64,000 nt of DNA, taken from positions 20,553 to 84,552 of the forward strand of contig CAKQBW010000001.1 in assembly GCA_934216505.1 (NCBI GenBank). Reading direction: 5' to 3'. The DNA is from an uncultured Alphaproteobacteria bacterium (GTDB lineage: Bacteria > Pseudomonadota > Alphaproteobacteria > CAAHEQ01 > UBA3637). Made by a program: the position numbers and the translations under genes. This document shows, one piece after another, positions 19,021-57,697 of this stretch; positions within the stretch are counted from its first letter, which is position 1, and the number at the start of each line of letters is the position of its first letter. Below the pieces are notes generated by a model. It was not told the DNA's origin and did no database searches. It saw only the letters and a list, made by a program, of their open reading frames with translations.

Positions 19021-19629
19021 TTGATGAAAATTTCAAAATTATGTTTGACTTTGGCCGTGGCGGGTGTCATCGGTTTGGCTTCAATGGACGCTTTTGCGGC
19101 ACGGGTGAGAAAACCCTGTCCTGCGGGAACTTACTCTAAAGCGGGGGCAACCAGTTTAGCGGGGTGTATTAAGTGTAGTACTTTGGGAATCAATAAGTAT
19201 TCTGCTTCAGAAGGGGCCTCTACCTGTTCTACCTGTCAAGGGGGAAAAATCGCTAATGCTGAGGGAACAGGTTGTATTGATACCTGTAAAAAAGGATATT
19301 TGCTTGTCAATGGTAAATGTATTGCTTGTACAGCAGAAAATAAAAAAGCAGGATTTATTTGTGATGGGACAACAGAATTTACCTGTAAAAAAGGGTATTA
19401 TAAAGCGGGAACGACTTGTAAAACATGTGTGAAAAATGCTGAGTCATGCACCAGTGGGACAGATTTTGTCTGCAAACAAGGGTTCTTTAAACGGGGAACA
19501 GCCTGCGTTGCTTGTCCGACAGGGGCAGGGGTTGAATCTTGTACGCCCGAAGGATTCACATGTAATGTTGGTTTCTATGAAAACAAGGTGACATGTACAA
19601 AATGTGAAGCAGGATATTATTGCGAATAA
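19021..19629 (+). CDS. secreted Cys-rich repeat protein (ephrin-receptor-like / GCC2_GCC3-type CxxCPAGTY modules)
   Basis: Signal peptide MMKISKLCLTLAVAGVIGLASMDAFA. Repeated C-x2-C...G(Y/F)(Y/F) modules: PCPAGTYSKAGATSLAGCIKC, CKKGYYKAGTTCKTC, CKQGFFKRGTACVAC, CTKCEAGYYCE. Confidence 0.6.
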   Translation: MMKISKLCLTLAVAGVIGLASMDAFAARVRKPCPAGTYSKAGATSLAGCIKCSTLGINKYSASEGASTCSTCQGGKIANAEGTGCIDTCKKGYLLVNGKCIACTAENKKAGFICDGTTEFTCKKGYYKAGTTCKTCVKNAESCTSGTDFVCKQGFFKRGTACVACPTGAGVESCTPEGFTCNVGFYENKVTCTKCEAGYYCE

Positions 19630-43046: not shown

Positions 43047-43170
43047 AAACCCTTTAATTTTAAGTTGCTATCCGATAGGGAATTTTATACACTTATTTTT
43101 CAAAAAAATCAACTTTTTTATTTGCATTTTGTTTCTTTTTTGTGTAGAGTAGAACAAAAGGAGAACAAAA

Positions 43171-43791
43171 ATGATTGGAAAACTTTCAGGGCGTGTGGAT
43201 TCGTTTTATGAAGGCTACCTTATTTTAGATGTCAATGGGGTGGGTTATAGGGTCTTTTGTTCGTCTAAGACAGTGGCAAAATTAGGAGGCGTGGGGGCGT
43301 CGGCTTCTTTATGGATAGAAACGCAAGTGCGGGAAGATCATATTCACCTGATTGGTTTTGCCGATACAACAGAACAACAACTTTTTAATCTGTTGGGGAC
43401 AGTACAGGGGGTTGGGGCAAAAGTGGCTTTGGCTATTTTATCCGCTCTGACGCCTCAGGAAATTCAAATGGCGGTGATGACGGGTGATGGAAAAGCCTTT
43501 ACACGGGCAGGAGGAGTAGGCCCCAAATTGGGTGTGCGTTTGGTGACGGAATTAAAAGGAAAAATGGGAACAGTGGGCAGTCAAGAAGCGATGCAGGTTA
43601 TCAATTCTAGTGCTTCTGTTAGGACGGGGGCTTCTGTGATGGAGGAGGCTATTTCTGCGTTGTCTAATTTAGGATATTCTCGCATTGAGGCGGGTATGGT
43701 GGTGGCCAATGTTTTAAAGGCGCACCCTGATTCTAATACTTCTGATCTGATTCGGCTGTCTTTACGGGAAATTGGCAAGGGGGCGTTTTGA
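43171..43791 (+). CDS. ruvA: Holliday junction branch migration protein RuvA
   Basis: MIGKLSGRVD... and LGTVQGVGAKVALAIL HhH motifs. Confidence 0.9.
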   Translation: MIGKLSGRVDSFYEGYLILDVNGVGYRVFCSSKTVAKLGGVGASASLWIETQVREDHIHLIGFADTTEQQLFNLLGTVQGVGAKVALAILSALTPQEIQMAVMTGDGKAFTRAGGVGPKLGVRLVTELKGKMGTVGSQEAMQVINSSASVRTGASVMEEAISALSNLGYSRIEAGMVVANVLKAHPDSNTSDLIRLSLREIGKGAF

Positions 43792-44393
43792 TGAAAAAGA
43801 TTGTTTTTTTGTTGGGACTTTGTTTTGTTGGGTCGGTTAAAGCCATGGTGGCCCCTGAAATTTTTGACTATGAGCCGACTTGCCCTAAAGATAAACCCTT
43901 TATTCAAGTTATTCCTGAACGGGGAACAGAATGTCAATCTTGTGACTCTTTACGGGGATTGATGCTGAAAAAGGAGAGTGATTGTCAAAGGTGCCCTCAT
44001 CGTGAAAGGACGGAAAAAGGGGAATGTCGGTTAAAAAGATGTCCCGCTACGGCGCCTTACTATGAATCCAAATGGAATTGGAGTGGGTGTAAAAATTGCC
44101 AAGATGAACCGACGCATATTACGAAAGACGAATGTTTGCAGTGTCCGAATATGCGCTGGGTAGAGGGATTAAATCTTTGTGCGCCGAATAAAAAAGGCGT
44201 TATTTATTATAATGGGGAAAGTTTGGGGCAGGGGCGTTTAATTGGGGGGATGTTGCCTTATTCTTTTCCTTGTGATAACTTCAAAAAGGAAAAAGCGATT
44301 CGGACGGGTCGGGAAGAATGTCGTCTGTGTCCCCATACAAAATTTCAAGATGGTTGGTGTTATTCAGATCAAAAAGGAAACTCAAATGGTTGA
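43791..44393 (+). CDS. secreted Cys-rich protein inserted between ruvA and ruvB
   Basis: ATG overlaps the ruvA TGA (TGATG). Signal peptide [18 protein letters not shown]; 22 Cys in ~180 mature residues ([38 protein letters not shown]). Its stop overlaps the ruvB start. Confidence 0.6.
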
Positions 44394-45482: not shown

Positions 45483-45896
45483 ATGATTGCAACTTATCAA
45501 TTTCGTGTTTATTATGTAGATACAGATGCAAGTGGTATTTTATACCATGCGAACTATTTGTCGTATGCGGAAAGGGCCCGCAGTGAATGGTTTAACGAAA
45601 ATAATATGCCAGTCACAAAACTTTTGGAAAGAGGCGATGCCTTTGTCGTTTGTCGGGCAGAGGTAGAATATAAACATCCTGCCCCTTTAAATGCTCTAGT
45701 GAAAGTAGAAACTCGTGTGAAAGAAGTTAAAGCGGCTAGTTGTTTGAGCGAACAAAAATTTTATATTGATGATAAATTAGTGGCGATAGTTCGGATAGAA
45801 GCGGTTAGTGTGGATACCACAACCTTAAGACCTAAACGGATTCCCGCTGATATACGGGCTTTATACGAAAAGTATATGCAAGAGGAAGAAAAATAA
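45483..45896 (+). CDS. ybgC: Tol-Pal-associated acyl-CoA thioesterase
   Basis: 137-aa 4HBT hot-dog fold: YVDTDASGILYHANYLSYAERAR. Confidence 0.85.
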   Translation: MIATYQFRVYYVDTDASGILYHANYLSYAERARSEWFNENNMPVTKLLERGDAFVVCRAEVEYKHPAPLNALVKVETRVKEVKAASCLSEQKFYIDDKLVAIVRIEAVSVDTTTLRPKRIPADIRALYEKYMQEEEK

Positions 45897-45897
45897 G

Positions 45898-46212
45898 ATG
45901 TCTTCGCCTTTTGGAATCGTCGGTCTTCTGTTTTCAAAAAACCTCCCTTTATTGGTGGGAGTTATGGTACTGGACTATTTGGGAATGTATTTTTTGAATT
46001 TGGGGGATATTGTTGAAAGTCTTTTGTTCTTTTTGATGATTTTATTGGCTCTTCTTTTTTCAAACCGAGTTCATTCGGGAACAACTTTATTACAAGTTTT
46101 GATAATTTTGTTTTCTTTTGATATGTTTTTGCGCTGGGGCTTGGGAATGATATTGCCCCAGGAAATAACAACTCTTGAAACTGAACAGATTATTCAAAGT
46201 ATTCAACAATAA
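45898..46212 (+). CDS. small hypothetical membrane protein (104 aa) between ybgC and tolQ
   Basis: Three predicted TM segments; coupled to ybgC (ATG 2 nt after its stop). Confidence 0.4.
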   Translation: MSSPFGIVGLLFSKNLPLLVGVMVLDYLGMYFLNLGDIVESLLFFLMILLALLFSNRVHSGTTLLQVLIILFSFDMFLRWGLGMILPQEITTLETEQIIQSIQQ

Positions 46213-46228: not shown

Positions 46229-46912
46229 ATGACAAACCAAATACATTCATCTATTTCCATGATGGGAATGTTCCAAGATTCTGATATTTTTATGAAAATT
46301 TTAATTTTGGGATTGTTGTTTGCCTCGGTTTGGTGTTGGGCAATTATTTTTGATAAAGTGATGATGTTGCGCCGAATGAAAGAACGAATGAAACGCTTTG
46401 AGGAAGGGTTTTGGCATACGACTTCATTAGTCTCTTTTTTTCAAGACTTACCCAAGAAAGTCAAAGACCCTTTAAGTTTGATTTTTAAAAATGCTTATAT
46501 GGAATATCAGCATATTCTAACCGAAAAGGTCAGAAATCCTTCTATCAAAATGGAAGAGCGATTGGAAAAGGTCATGCAAATAACGATAGATAAACAGGTT
46601 GAAAAAATGGAAACACGCATGATTTTTTTGGCTTCAACGGGGTCTGTGGCACCTTTGTTGGGATTGTTTGGCACAGTATGGGGGATTATGGATTCTTTTA
46701 ATGCCATTGGGGCCACGCAAAGTACAAATATTGCAGCGGTGGCACCTGGGGTAGCAGAAGCTCTTTTTACAACAGCCGTTGGTTTGATAGCGGCAATTCC
46801 CGCTGTTGTAGCCTACAATAAATTGACCCATGACATTGAACGGGTCGTGGGGCGTATGGAAACTTTTTCAGATGAATTAAGTACGATTTTATCCAGTCAA
46901 AAAGGAGAGTAA
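46229..46912 (+). CDS. tolQ: Tol-Pal system protein TolQ
   Basis: MotA/TolQ/ExbB family 3-TM protein; FLASTGSVAPLLGLFGTVWGIM. Confidence 0.9.
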   Translation: MTNQIHSSISMMGMFQDSDIFMKILILGLLFASVWCWAIIFDKVMMLRRMKERMKRFEEGFWHTTSLVSFFQDLPKKVKDPLSLIFKNAYMEYQHILTEKVRNPSIKMEERLEKVMQITIDKQVEKMETRMIFLASTGSVAPLLGLFGTVWGIMDSFNAIGATQSTNIAAVAPGVAEALFTTAVGLIAAIPAVVAYNKLTHDIERVVGRMETFSDELSTILSSQKGE

Positions 46913-46914
46913 AG

Positions 46915-47340
46915 ATGATTCGGTCTCGTCGTCATCGTCATTCCATCAGGGCTGAAGTGAATTTAACCCCTCTTATTGATGTGATGACTAGTTTATTGGC
47001 TATTTTTATGATAACAGCTCCTTTATTGACAACAGGGATTCCTTTGAATTTACCAAGGGGAGATGGCAAAGTAGTAGATAGTCCCGAAAAAACATTGGAT
47101 ATATCGGTAGATAGACGCGGAAAAGTTTATTTAGCGAATCAAGAGGTGAAATTGGAAAATTTAACCCAAAAACTTTCTTCGTTGGTTCGGGAAAATCCCC
47201 GTTTGCAAATGATGATTTCGGGGGACAAAAAAGCAGATTATGGTCGGGTGATTGAAGTTATGGCATTGTTGCGGACCTCTGGTTTTACCCAGGTGGGCTT
47301 AAAAACAGATGCAGAAGTTATGAAAATAAAAGGAAAATAA
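46915..47340 (+). CDS. tolR: Tol-Pal system protein TolR
   Basis: ExbD/TolR family; EVNLTPLIDVMTSLLAIFMITAPL. Confidence 0.9.
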   Translation: MIRSRRHRHSIRAEVNLTPLIDVMTSLLAIFMITAPLLTTGIPLNLPRGDGKVVDSPEKTLDISVDRRGKVYLANQEVKLENLTQKLSSLVRENPRLQMMISGDKKADYGRVIEVMALLRTSGFTQVGLKTDAEVMKIKGK

Positions 47341-56557: not shown

Positions 56558-57697
56558 ATGAAAAAAACAAAAGAATCAGGTCGCAGTATGGTTGAAATGC
56601 TGGGTGTTTTGGCCATTATTGGGGTGTTGAGTGTGGGCGGTATAGCGGGCTATACGACCGCTATGAACAAACATCGGGCGAATAAGATTTTAAATGGGGC
56701 GTCTGTGCGGGCCATCGTAGTTTCCACGCAAATCCAAAGAGGCTCTGCGGCACCGACACTCGGCGAATTTACAGATAACGAAGTCGGTGGGGCGAGACTT
56801 GGGACAGGTGTTCAAAACGCAGATGGGACAGCTACTTGGACCACAACAGACAAACGCTTTAGTTTGACTTTGACAGGGGTAAATGAAGATATTTGCACCC
56901 AAATGAAAGCCATGAAAGGGGAAAATGGCATCATCAAAGCCATCGCCGATGATTGTACCACGATTACCTATAATAACGATTTAACTGCAACGACTTTCAT
57001 AACGGACAATAAGGATTCCACGAGTTGCGAAAGTGCGGGCGGGGCTTGGAACGAAGCAACCAAGACCTGTGGGTGTCCAGGGCGCTATACAGGCTCTAAT
57101 TGTGAAATCGCCCCTACCACCTGTCCTTCAGAAACAACTCCCACCGAAGGCGGAAAGTGCAAGTGGTGTACTGATGAGGGAGACTGTGTCGTCTGTGAGA
57201 AGGAAGAAGAAGTAAAATGTGCTGACCTCCAATGTGGCTGTTATAACCCTAAAACCGAAAACGCAAAGTGTGGCAACTTTGCCTGTAAAACCTGTGAAAT
57301 AAAGAGTGATACCCCTGATGTTATTTGTGCTGAATACGGTAGTTGTATCTGCTATAACAAAAACACACAGAATGTAAAATGTGGCAACAAAAGATGTGGA
57401 ACCTGTGAAATAAAGAGTGATACCCCTGATGTTATTTGTGCTGAACACGGTAGTTGTATCTGCTATAACAAAAACACACAGAATGCAGGATGTAACAACA
57501 GCTACTGTAAAACCTGTGAACTAAAGAGTGATACCTCTGATGTTATTTGTCCTGGATATGGTGATTGTATCTGTTATAATAAGAACACACAGAATGTAAC
57601 ATGTAACGACTATAGATGTGGAACCTGTGAAATAAAGAGTGATACCCCTATCGCACGATGTGAGGATAATGGCACATGTTCCTGTGTGGCGGAGTAG
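56558..57697 (+). CDS. prepilin-type protein with large Cys-rich tandem-repeat C-terminal domain (379 aa)
   Basis: N-terminus ...SG|RSMVEMLGVLAIIGVLSVGGIAGYTTAMNKHRANKIL is pilin-like. C-terminus holds 4 tandem 37-aa modules CKTCEIKSDTPDVICAEYGSCICYNKNTQNVKCGNKR. Strong RBS GAGGAGG. Confidence 0.6.
   Translation: MKKTKESGRSMVEMLGVLAIIGVLSVGGIAGYTTAMNKHRANKILNGASVRAIVVSTQIQRGSAAPTLGEFTDNEVGGARLGTGVQNADGTATWTTTDKRFSLTLTGVNEDICTQMKAMKGENGIIKAIADDCTTITYNNDLTATTFITDNKDSTSCESAGGAWNEATKTCGCPGRYTGSNCEIAPTTCPSETTPTEGGKCKWCTDEGDCVVCEKEEEVKCADLQCGCYNPKTENAKCGNFACKTCEIKSDTPDVICAEYGSCICYNKNTQNVKCGNKRCGTCEIKSDTPDVICAEHGSCICYNKNTQNAGCNNSYCKTCELKSDTSDVICPGYGDCICYNKNTQNVTCNDYRCGTCEIKSDTPIARCEDNGTCSCVAE
57285..57697 (+). 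repeat. ~3.7 tandem copies of a 111-bp (37-aa Cys-rich) in-frame repeat in the pilin-like gene
   Basis: CCTGTGAAATAAAGAGTGATACCCCTGATGTTATTTGTGCTGAA recurs at 57291 and 57402, with diverged copies at ~57513 and ~57624. Confidence 0.75.

Follow-up and report, generated by a model that had tools for sequence, protein, structure and literature searches.

A gene for a cysteine-rich protein overlaps both ruvA and ruvB

We analysed a 64,000-nucleotide stretch of DNA from an uncultured Alphaproteobacteria bacterium (GenBank assembly GCA_934216505.1, contig CAKQBW010000001.1, positions 20,553 to 84,552 of the forward strand), hereafter the window, in which an open reading frame (ORF) of 200 amino acids, here called gene X, lies between ruvA and ruvB. 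A preliminary description of the window had noted X as a secreted cysteine-rich protein gene inside the ruvAB operon, and had proposed that it was either a young insertion or an unusual conserved coupling. The features of the locus, in window coordinates, are as follows.

43122-43150, + strand: putative ruvA promoter, read from the sequence, with -35 hexamer TTGCAT (43122-43127), a 17-nt spacer and -10 hexamer TAGAGT (43145-43150)
43152-43166, + strand: GAACAAAAGGAGAAC, a GAAC-N7-GAAC direct repeat found by pattern match, putative SOS operator
43171-43791, + strand: ruvA, complete, 206 amino acids (Pfam RuvA_N, 3e-18; HHH_5, 3e-9; RuvA_C, 6e-12)
43777-43783, + strand: AAGGGGG, Shine-Dalgarno-like, in the last ruvA codons (G-K-G), 7 nt upstream of the X ATG
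43791-44393, + strand: gene X, predicted exported Cys-rich repeat protein, 200 amino acids (ORF, substitution ratios, homologues, AlphaFold2 model)
43791-43844, + strand: predicted X signal peptide, residues 1-18, cleavage before MVAPE, Sec / signal peptidase I type (-3/-1 rule, applied by eye)
43881-44039, + strand: X Cys repeat 1, residues 31-83, with C31 PKDKPF, C48xxC51 D, C65xxC68 PHR and C79 RLK (regular-expression match)
44040-44180, + strand: X Cys repeat 2, residues 84-130, with C84 PATAPY, C100xxC103, C115xxC118 PNMR and C130 (repeat alignment)
44271-44360, + strand: X partial Cys repeat 3, residues 161-190, with C161 D, C177xxC180 PHT and C190 (alignment with homologues)
44373-44379, + strand: AAAGGAA, Shine-Dalgarno-like sequence for ruvB, within the last X codons
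44386-45411, + strand: ruvB, complete, 341 amino acids (Pfam RuvB_N, 6e-81; AAA_lid_4; RuvB_C)

The X frame opens with the ATG at 43791, closes with the TGA at 44391-44393 and is unbroken. At its upstream junction, TTTTGATGAAA, the last base of the ruvA stop codon (43789-43791) is the first base of the X start codon (TGATG). At its downstream junction, AAATGGTTGAAA, the ruvB ATG at 44386 starts 8 nt before the end of X (overlap sequence ATGGTTGA), and the resulting RuvB start, MVENRII, is common to all relatives. Both overlaps had been described before and are confirmed in the sequence; they make translational coupling of X with ruvA and ruvB plausible. However, the window is 93% coding and 21 of its 65 same-strand neighbouring gene pairs overlap or lie at most 3 nt apart. 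Overlapping junctions are the norm in this genome, and coupling is therefore weak evidence for tying X functionally to DNA repair. Of the earlier claim that X is coupled to DNA-repair genes, the overlaps at both ends stand, but not their special status.

The ruvA-ruvB junction is a polymorphic slot

We compared this junction between related genomes. A RuvA scan of 185,579 species-representative genomes yielded 42 loci; the 21 closest (RuvA 62-88% identical), hereafter the clade, which do not include the species of the window, come from metagenome-assembled genomes (MAGs) of uncultured Alphaproteobacteria from rumen, abomasum, omasum and similar sources. A metagenome scan with a 9-sequence X alignment returned only 5 loci. 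At each locus of the RuvA scan we located RuvA, X, RuvB and YbgC and read the intervening ORFs (loci carry L numbers and X homologues P numbers below). The clade junctions are in the following states.

Empty, ruvA and ruvB adjacent with a 4-26 nt spacer: 10 of 21 (L004, L006, L014-18, L021-23)
A 507-amino-acid protein, X domain plus C-terminal extension: 1 of 21 (L005)
An exported protein of about 190 amino acids, here called Y: 7 of 21 (L008, L009, L011, L012, L019, L020, L024)
A 465-amino-acid exported protein: 1 of 21 (L010)
Polytopic membrane ORFs: 2 of 21 (L007, L013)

The order ruvA-X-ruvB recurs in four more loci on metagenome contigs, namely L001 and L055 (X 96-98% identical), L002 (55-60%) and L051-53 (37%). 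At least 250 nt separate ruvA from ruvB in 11 of the 21 clade genomes and in 13 of 18 more distant Alphaproteobacteria, contrary to the premise that the two genes are normally adjacent. Every occupant found in the clade (X, Y, the 465-amino-acid protein and the two polytopic ORFs) is an exported or membrane protein. A neighbour-joining tree built from RuvA plus RuvB interleaves the slot states: the window, with X, is sister to L004, its closest species-level relative (RuvA 88% identical), which lacks X; L005, with X, is sister to the empty L016; and the basal L021-23 are empty. A conserved coupling is not what these genomes show, since the slot is empty in 10 of the 21 and holds other proteins in 10 more. 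Thus X is one state of a polymorphic accessory slot, and neither a young insertion, as detailed below, nor a conserved coupling.

In nearly all occupied loci the slot gene begins at or directly past the ruvA stop. The conserved codons for the RuvA C terminus (…G-K-G…) read AAGGGGG or AAAGGGAG, and in empty-slot relatives the equivalent codons stand about 9-10 nt ahead of the ruvB ATG; the AAGGGGG at the ruvA end would serve as Shine-Dalgarno sequence for whichever gene comes next. At the other end of the slot, L002, L005 and L051 have an equivalent of AAAGGA at the X 3' end, as do L004 and L018 in their spacers.

The membrane ORFs of L007 (4625-5101, 158 amino acids) and L013 (4621-5151, 176 amino acids) end in …KHGRK and read 13 nt through the ruvB start. 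This tail is encoded, in another frame, by the same GGACTAAAC-ATGG junction that ends the X genes of L005 and L051, which suggests replacement or remodelling of an ORF on an old junction. Outside the clade, Hyphomicrobiales and Bosea MAGs (L029, L036, L037) carry a GNAT acetyltransferase gene of 164-168 amino acids between ruvA and ruvB, starting from the ruvA stop (about 4615-5120 in L029 and L036; 1958-2452 in L037), and two further loci, L031 and L038, have shorter ruvA-ruvB gaps of about 300 nt with truncated ORFs that may be decayed GNAT copies. At 4595-5770 of L028, from a distant alphaproteobacterium, the gap holds a membrane ORF, a possible-antitoxin ORF and a PIN-domain toxin ORF.

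X is an old occupant under purifying selection

We then considered whether X is a real gene and how long it has been in place. Against L001, in which X is 96% identical, the ratio of nonsynonymous to synonymous substitution rates (dN/dS) is 0.12 for X, 0.09 for ruvA and 0.05 for ruvB; against L002 (X 55-60% identical) it is 0.26 for X and 0.12 for ruvA. X is under purifying selection, yet it evolves about twice as fast as RuvA and more than five times as fast as RuvB. Together with the unbroken frame and the conserved cysteines described below, these ratios establish the ORF as real, and a frame error or spurious ORF is ruled out by dN/dS and by the homologues. The GC content of X is 0.42, and 0.36 at third codon positions (GC3), like its neighbours and close to the window mean of 0.40, and a sliding composition profile shows no step at X. 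A consensus scan of the + strand inside X found no promoter-like or terminator-like site.

X relatives in the same slot of L002, L005 and L051-53 are 37-60% identical to that of the window, with RuvA 77-82% identical. In addition, the spacers of the X-less L004 (26 nt) and L018 (20 nt) align with the 3' ends of X genes, AAGGAAA included, which suggests that they are relics of X deletion. Since X occupies the slot in divergent lineages and has left apparent 3' relics in these two, sequence comparison indicates that it is old there and has been lost repeatedly, with no recent gain.

A recent horizontal insertion of an effector or adhesin gene would account for the patchy distribution, for the absence of X from the closest species-level relative, L004, and for the rarity of the family (a word search of 5.8 billion proteins gave 3 matches and an exhaustive one 90 cluster representatives). 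It is largely refuted, and we hold it to be very improbable: GC and GC3 are native, the junctions carry no mobility genes or repeats, four further lineages have an X, 37-60% identical, in this slot, L004 itself contains the apparent X 3' relic, and no phage or plasmid homologue was found by tblastn. The young insertion of the preliminary description is not borne out, given this composition and selection, the same-slot relatives and the relics; the orthologous insertion is patchy and has no known function, so that it is not a widespread gene of established role either. X was also considered as a defence system or prophage remnant and rejected, as there were no matches and no partner genes.

Divergence of X is discordant with its flanks and related genes occupy other junctions

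The similarity of X does not follow that of the flanking genes. L005 and L051 have RuvA proteins that are 89% identical and slot X sequences that are only 38% identical. The X of the window matches P0003 and P0005, which are not encoded in the ruvAB slot, at 48-49% identity, but the slot X of L005 and of L051 at only 37-41%. The ratio of X to RuvA divergence is about 1:1 between the window and L001, about 2:1 between the window and L002, and more than 5:1 between L005 and L051. Such discordance would arise either from very uneven divergence rates or from allele replacement, the latter being what the minimal mobile element model, taken up below, predicts at the slot. The occupants also share modules: residues 247-472 of the 507-amino-acid L005 protein match the 465-amino-acid protein of L010 (E 6e-13), and its residues 368-470 match Y (E 4e-7).

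One explanation of these relationships is a single ancestral slot gene that diverged very fast in place, through domain loss, repeat change and diversifying selection, and was repeatedly deleted, with no exchange of cassettes. X, Y and the 465-amino-acid protein do share a start at the ruvA stop and an MKKI… signal peptide, the L005 protein bridges the X and Y modules, deletion relics are present and X evolves faster than its flanks. Divergence in place sits less well with the very uneven X:RuvA ratios, with a window X nearer to non-slot homologues than to the slot X of L005 and L051, and with the membrane ORFs of L007 and L013, which show no similarity to X or Y. We regard it as a rather unlikely account, although the strongest of the alternatives, and favour a slot whose occupants turn over.

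X-like genes also lie at other conserved gene pairs.

TolC-like OEP / X-like / macA-macB junction: P0006 and P0008 (L046-49, L056), start abutting the OEP stop
hda-ftsK / X-like / lolA junction: P0017, P0020 and P0013, of 318-454 amino acids (L060-65), overlapping or abutting
dnaN-recF / X-like / gyrB junction: P0018 and a 279-amino-acid relative (L058, L062)

P0008 comes from the MAG of L014, whose ruvAB slot is empty, and P0017 from that of L011, whose slot holds Y. Some members of the superfamily stand alone. At one such locus, L003, which encodes P0003 (270 amino acids) and is not between ruvA and ruvB, the gene is flanked by a perfect 29-nt direct repeat (45-73 and 1006-1034; about 34 nt by eye) of a terminator-like hairpin (AAAAACCGTCCGAATAGGGCGGTTTTTTT), which could be the footprint of an insertion by duplication. 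The start of L003 resembles a tRNA 3' end (…GGTTCGAGTCC…CCA), and ARAGORN found no complete tRNA there. In L062, a 333-amino-acid exported protein (2488-3489) is encoded between recF and the X-like gene; according to the translations it shares with the 465-amino-acid protein of L010 (4625-6022) a C-terminal domain of about 190 residues, KPIIYLYP…YALYWEG…FIIYWLPK…VEWGG, for which the L010 protein has no Pfam match.

Downstream of ruvB, the window continues with the following genes.

45483-45896, + strand: ybgC-like thioesterase (Pfam 4HBT_2)
45898-46212, + strand: small membrane ORF, 104 amino acids (hydrophobic translation; no Pfam match)
46229-46912, + strand: putative tolQ (name read from the translation)
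46915-47340, + strand: putative tolR (name read from the translation)

The ORF at 45898-46212 starts 1 nt past the ybgC stop and precedes the putative tolQ; it is possibly a further case of a small gene set within a conserved cluster.

X belongs to an undescribed family of cysteine-repeat proteins

X contains 17 cysteines, rather than the 22 first counted. The mature protein accounts for 16, and X has five CxxC motifs. Read by eye, its N terminus consists of MKK, a 13-residue hydrophobic stretch and VKA ahead of the cleavage point, and so presents the charged start, hydrophobic core and small -3 and -1 residues of a signal peptidase I substrate. Ala18, Val20, Ala21 and Pro22 are invariant in a four-sequence alignment of the closest homologues, and comparable N termini are found across the superfamily. 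Export via Sec is probable on this reading of the N terminus, and with its 16 mature cysteines X is fairly called a secreted Cys-rich protein. A lipoprotein was considered and rejected: Cys11, in an LGLC context, is absent from P0002 and P0003 and, being not conserved, provides no lipobox of the L-[AS]-[GA]-C type. Of the 16 mature cysteines, 15 recur in at least 90% of 21 aligned sequences; the exception is C79, which all nine closest homologues nevertheless have.

Among 5.8 billion proteins, a word-indexed search returned three homologues, at 96%, 55% and 42% identity, and an exhaustive profile search of 1.84 billion cluster representatives returned 90 proteins at E<=1e-3, 28 of them at E<=1e-10. 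Nearly all of the 34 superfamily sequences that we retrieved begin with an MKK… signal peptide, and they consist of one to about eleven tandem units of roughly 35-50 residues. The unit reads CP-x-DKP(L/F), 4-16 residues, CxxC(D), 6-22 residues, (E/D)CxxCPNR, 5-10 residues, C-x-LK. X has about 2.5 copies of this six-cysteine repeat, two full units and a partial third; its homologue P0003 has one extra unit beyond partial repeat 3, and P0014 and P0028 have 4-5 tandem copies.

In Pfam, X gave only a sub-threshold match to LRV_FeS (E 0.0055, below the curated cutoff), and eight of its homologues, multi-repeat ones included, gave none; of two long homologues with other Pfam domains, one carries VIT and the second SprB repeats. 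NCBIfam and PHROGs returned no match to X, and PADLOC a single weak and not credible one, to a methyltransferase profile (E 3.7e-4, 18 bits). No match was found in phages or plasmids by tblastn, and no paralogue in the window by the same method. An AlphaFold2 model built on the 21-sequence alignment reached a mean predicted local distance difference test score (pLDDT) of 85.4 and a predicted template modelling score (pTM) of 0.72, with all five models at 81 or above. It replaced a poor first model from 4 sequences (pLDDT 64.6), for which the Foldseek result was meaningless. X is predicted to form short beta-hairpins, with short helices preceding the second CxxC of each unit, and has no relative in the PDB either by sequence or by the fold of the confident model. 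Thus X belongs to an undescribed family of putatively exported Cys-repeat proteins, outside the curated families searched (Pfam, NCBIfam, PHROGs and PADLOC).

Two pairs of CxxC motifs, C48xxC51…C65xxC68 and C100xxC103…C115xxC118, show a zinc-ribbon-like pattern. We weighed the reading in which X stays in the cytoplasm as a zinc-binding partner of RuvAB and its hydrophobic N terminus is no signal peptide. The two perfect CxxC-x(11-13)-CxxC motifs agree with such a role, as do the weak LRV_FeS match (a 4Fe-4S motif), the PADLOC methyltransferase match and the position of the gene within the ruvAB operon. Yet a canonical signal peptide with an A-x-A type cleavage site is conserved across the superfamily, the number of mature cysteines is even, paralogues adjoin envelope genes (tolC/macA, lolA), half of the relatives dispense with the gene and no PDB relative was found by sequence or fold; the zinc-binding partner is the least probable explanation that we considered, barely credible on this evidence. 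Because paired CxxC motifs also resemble zinc ribbons, the cysteines of X itself may either form disulfides or bind metal.

Cysteine-rich repeats occur elsewhere, too. The very long proteins encoded at L059 115-5055 and P0019 (1616-1646 amino acids), the latter with an N-terminal VIT domain and a DUF2135 match, carry X-like Cys repeats toward their C termini (by tblastn in L059 and by profile match in P0019), so the X-type repeat is also a module of large surface proteins. In the window, 19024-19629 (+ strand) encodes a second exported Cys-rich protein of 201 amino acids, about 11% Cys, with CPAGTY / C..C type repeats and weak, sub-threshold Pfam matches to Giardia VSP and a TNFR-like module; tblastn shows no relationship with X. 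A 379-amino-acid protein at 56558-57697 (+ strand) has a prepilin-like N terminus (…GRSMVEMLGVLAIIGVLS) with a weak N_methyl match and, behind it, four Cys-rich repeats that are nearly identical and about 35 residues long (…CGTCEIKSDTPDVICAE.GSCICYNKNTQNV.C…).

The putative ruvA promoter carries a LexA-box-like motif

The gene ruvA is transcribed divergently from dnaB (minus strand) across an intergenic region of 124 nt (43047-43170). The dnaB-ruvA arrangement is also found in L051, and the AT-rich intergenic region is conserved clade-wide well beyond the promoter hexamers, T-tracts included. The hexamers of the putative ruvA promoter are positionally conserved in 20 clade loci; the consensus scan missed this promoter because its -35 element matches at only 3 of 6 positions.

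Directly after the -10 hexamer and before the ruvA ATG, overlapping the ruvA ribosome-binding site, lies GAACAAAAGGAGAAC, which is the reverse complement of the GTTC-N7-GTTC pattern. In Alphaproteobacteria the LexA operator is the direct repeat GTTC-N7-GTTC, and the ruvCAB genes of Caulobacter are damage-induced (PMC3323433, PMC9578287). The GAAC-N7-GAAC motif occupies the same position in 15 of the 21 clade loci and also in L051, and it is present in the X-bearing loci checked (window, L001 and L005). The edges of the conserved block coincide exactly with the two GAAC tetramers, and the adjoining bases vary. Over the whole window the pattern matches 3 times against 1.6 expected, the other two matches being inside ORFs; as it is not enriched, the case for a LexA box rests on its positional conservation. 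In L028 a canonical GTTC-N7-GTTC (GTTCTTGACTTGTTC) lies 62 nt upstream of ruvA. Since X would share the ruvA promoter and the motif with it, X may be SOS-inducible.

This motif also bears on the idea that X is a dedicated output of the DNA-damage response, the slot being one for fast-evolving, lineage-specific exported or membrane effectors induced with ruvAB, such as a damage-induced inhibitor acting as a division or envelope checkpoint, or a damage-induced secreted toxin. Such a checkpoint inhibitor would be comparable in role to the division inhibitors of the SOS response in other bacteria; these, for example SulA, YneA and SidA, are mutually unrelated and often small membrane or exported proteins. 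The match of the conserved repeat, between the -10 and the ruvA start, to the alphaproteobacterial LexA box is consistent with a dedicated output, as are the damage induction of ruvCAB in Caulobacter (PMC3323433, PMC9578287) and the exported or membrane nature of all clade occupants. But the slot is empty in 10 of the 21 relatives, most of which retain the motif, so that the occupant is dispensable for the damage response. Members of the superfamily also stand at tolC/macA, ftsK/lolA and recF/gyrB, where no SOS link is evident, none having been looked for; the motif is degenerate in four Y-bearing loci, and the LexA site is itself putative. A dedicated effector is, in our judgement, unlikely, and we prefer to see any damage induction of X as passive co-expression from its position.

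Interpretation

We consider it probable that X is a Sec-exported periplasmic or surface accessory protein encoded in a polymorphic ruvA/ruvB slot, with passive, possibly damage-inducible, co-expression with ruvAB. Apparently lacking a promoter or terminator of its own, X would be transcribed from the ruvA promoter and translated from the Shine-Dalgarno sequence within the last ruvA codons, while the last X codons would provide that of ruvB. With one Shine-Dalgarno sequence borrowed and the other donated, X could be gained or lost while the expression of ruvAB stays intact. The slot, with conserved flanks, alternative whole-gene cassettes or none, and no mobility genes, resembles a minimal mobile element, and it probably turns over through deletion and through homologous recombination within the flanking genes. 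We think it most likely that X acts at the cell envelope or in the interaction of the cell with its surroundings, and not in Holliday-junction processing.

A broader proposition is that the X superfamily and its partner modules systematically occupy the ruvA/ruvB, recF/gyrB, ftsK/lolA and tolC/macA junctions as seamless cassettes that swap ribosome-binding sites, the core genes providing both their promoters and the homology arms by which lineages exchange them. A compact genome would in this way keep a fast-evolving surface or periplasmic repertoire without mobile elements, and at ruvAB the cassette could also come under LexA control upon DNA damage. We put this forward tentatively, as possible but less likely than not.

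Several points weigh against these views. Firstly, export is a by-eye reading of the N-terminal sequence, and the paired CxxC motifs, being also zinc-ribbon-like, possibly bind metal instead of forming disulfides. Secondly, exchange is deduced from discordant similarity, and very fast divergence in place would look alike. Thirdly, in a compact genome of housekeeping operons any accessory gene may look wedged, and recurrence at conserved pairs may be partly a sampling effect; with 93% of the window coding and a third of same-strand neighbours tightly packed, tight packing of X-like genes is partly expected for any accessory gene. Fourthly, the LexA-box-like motif is degenerate in 6 clade loci, and its overlap with the ribosome-binding site could account for some of its conservation. 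Lastly, all sequences are metagenome-derived.

If our account of X holds, it adds a new family of exported Cys-repeat proteins with a confident predicted structure and no detectable solved relative, and it extends slots of the minimal mobile element kind beyond Neisseria and into essential operons. A cassette that inherits the upstream ribosome-binding site and supplies the downstream one would bear on how compact genomes gain and shed accessory genes without disturbing core operons. It would further offer a possible connection of the SOS response with an exported protein in uncultured gut Alphaproteobacteria. For annotation, the order ruvA-gene-ruvB, which is common in Alphaproteobacteria, should not be taken to imply a role in DNA repair.

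Comparison with known systems

A literature search for a gene between ruvA and ruvB turned up only protein-interaction papers. In two Vibrionaceae, V. vulnificus and V. parahaemolyticus, one or two genes are reported to have entered the ancestral ruvCAB operon, and ruvAB keeps its LexA site (PMC3323433). The insertion there appears to split ruvC from ruvAB, whereas here the gene stands between ruvA and ruvB and is one of several occupants. The GNAT and toxin-antitoxin genes found between ruvA and ruvB in other Alphaproteobacteria are alike in that the junction tolerates inserted genes, but they encode cytoplasmic proteins unrelated to X; the GNAT gene appears to be fixed in its lineage and not polymorphic, despite the degraded remnants in L031 and L038. 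With Giardia VSP, TNFR and furin-like CXXC repeat proteins, X has in common that it is predicted to be exported, repetitive, CxxC-rich and rich in beta-hairpins, a resemblance that is limited to general character.

The closest likeness is to the minimal mobile elements of Neisseria, for example at the pheS/pheT locus (Saunders & Snyder 2002; Snyder et al. 2007; both cited in PMC3082526, from which the definition is taken). These concern strains of a naturally transformable species, while our comparison is of species-level MAGs of an uncultured clade. Here, the cassettes overlap or abut both neighbours and donate the ribosome-binding site of the downstream gene, and the occupants are exported or membrane proteins, none with a restriction-modification domain match. 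On the side of likeness, the slot has ruvA on one side and ruvB on the other at each of the 21 clade loci, as well as at L001, L002, L051-53 and L055; the cassette varies between X, X with an extension, Y, the 465-amino-acid protein, two membrane ORFs and none; there is no transposase, integrase or repeat boundary, the junctions being bare stop/start overlaps with no other ORF in the slot; and RuvB is 87-97% identical in amino-acid sequence among closer relatives, enough for homology arms. Three of the four defining features of minimal mobile elements are thus seen at the ruvA/ruvB slot, and the fourth, recombinational exchange, may lie behind the discordant similarity of X and RuvA and the patchy slot state on the tree, both observed at species-level divergence.

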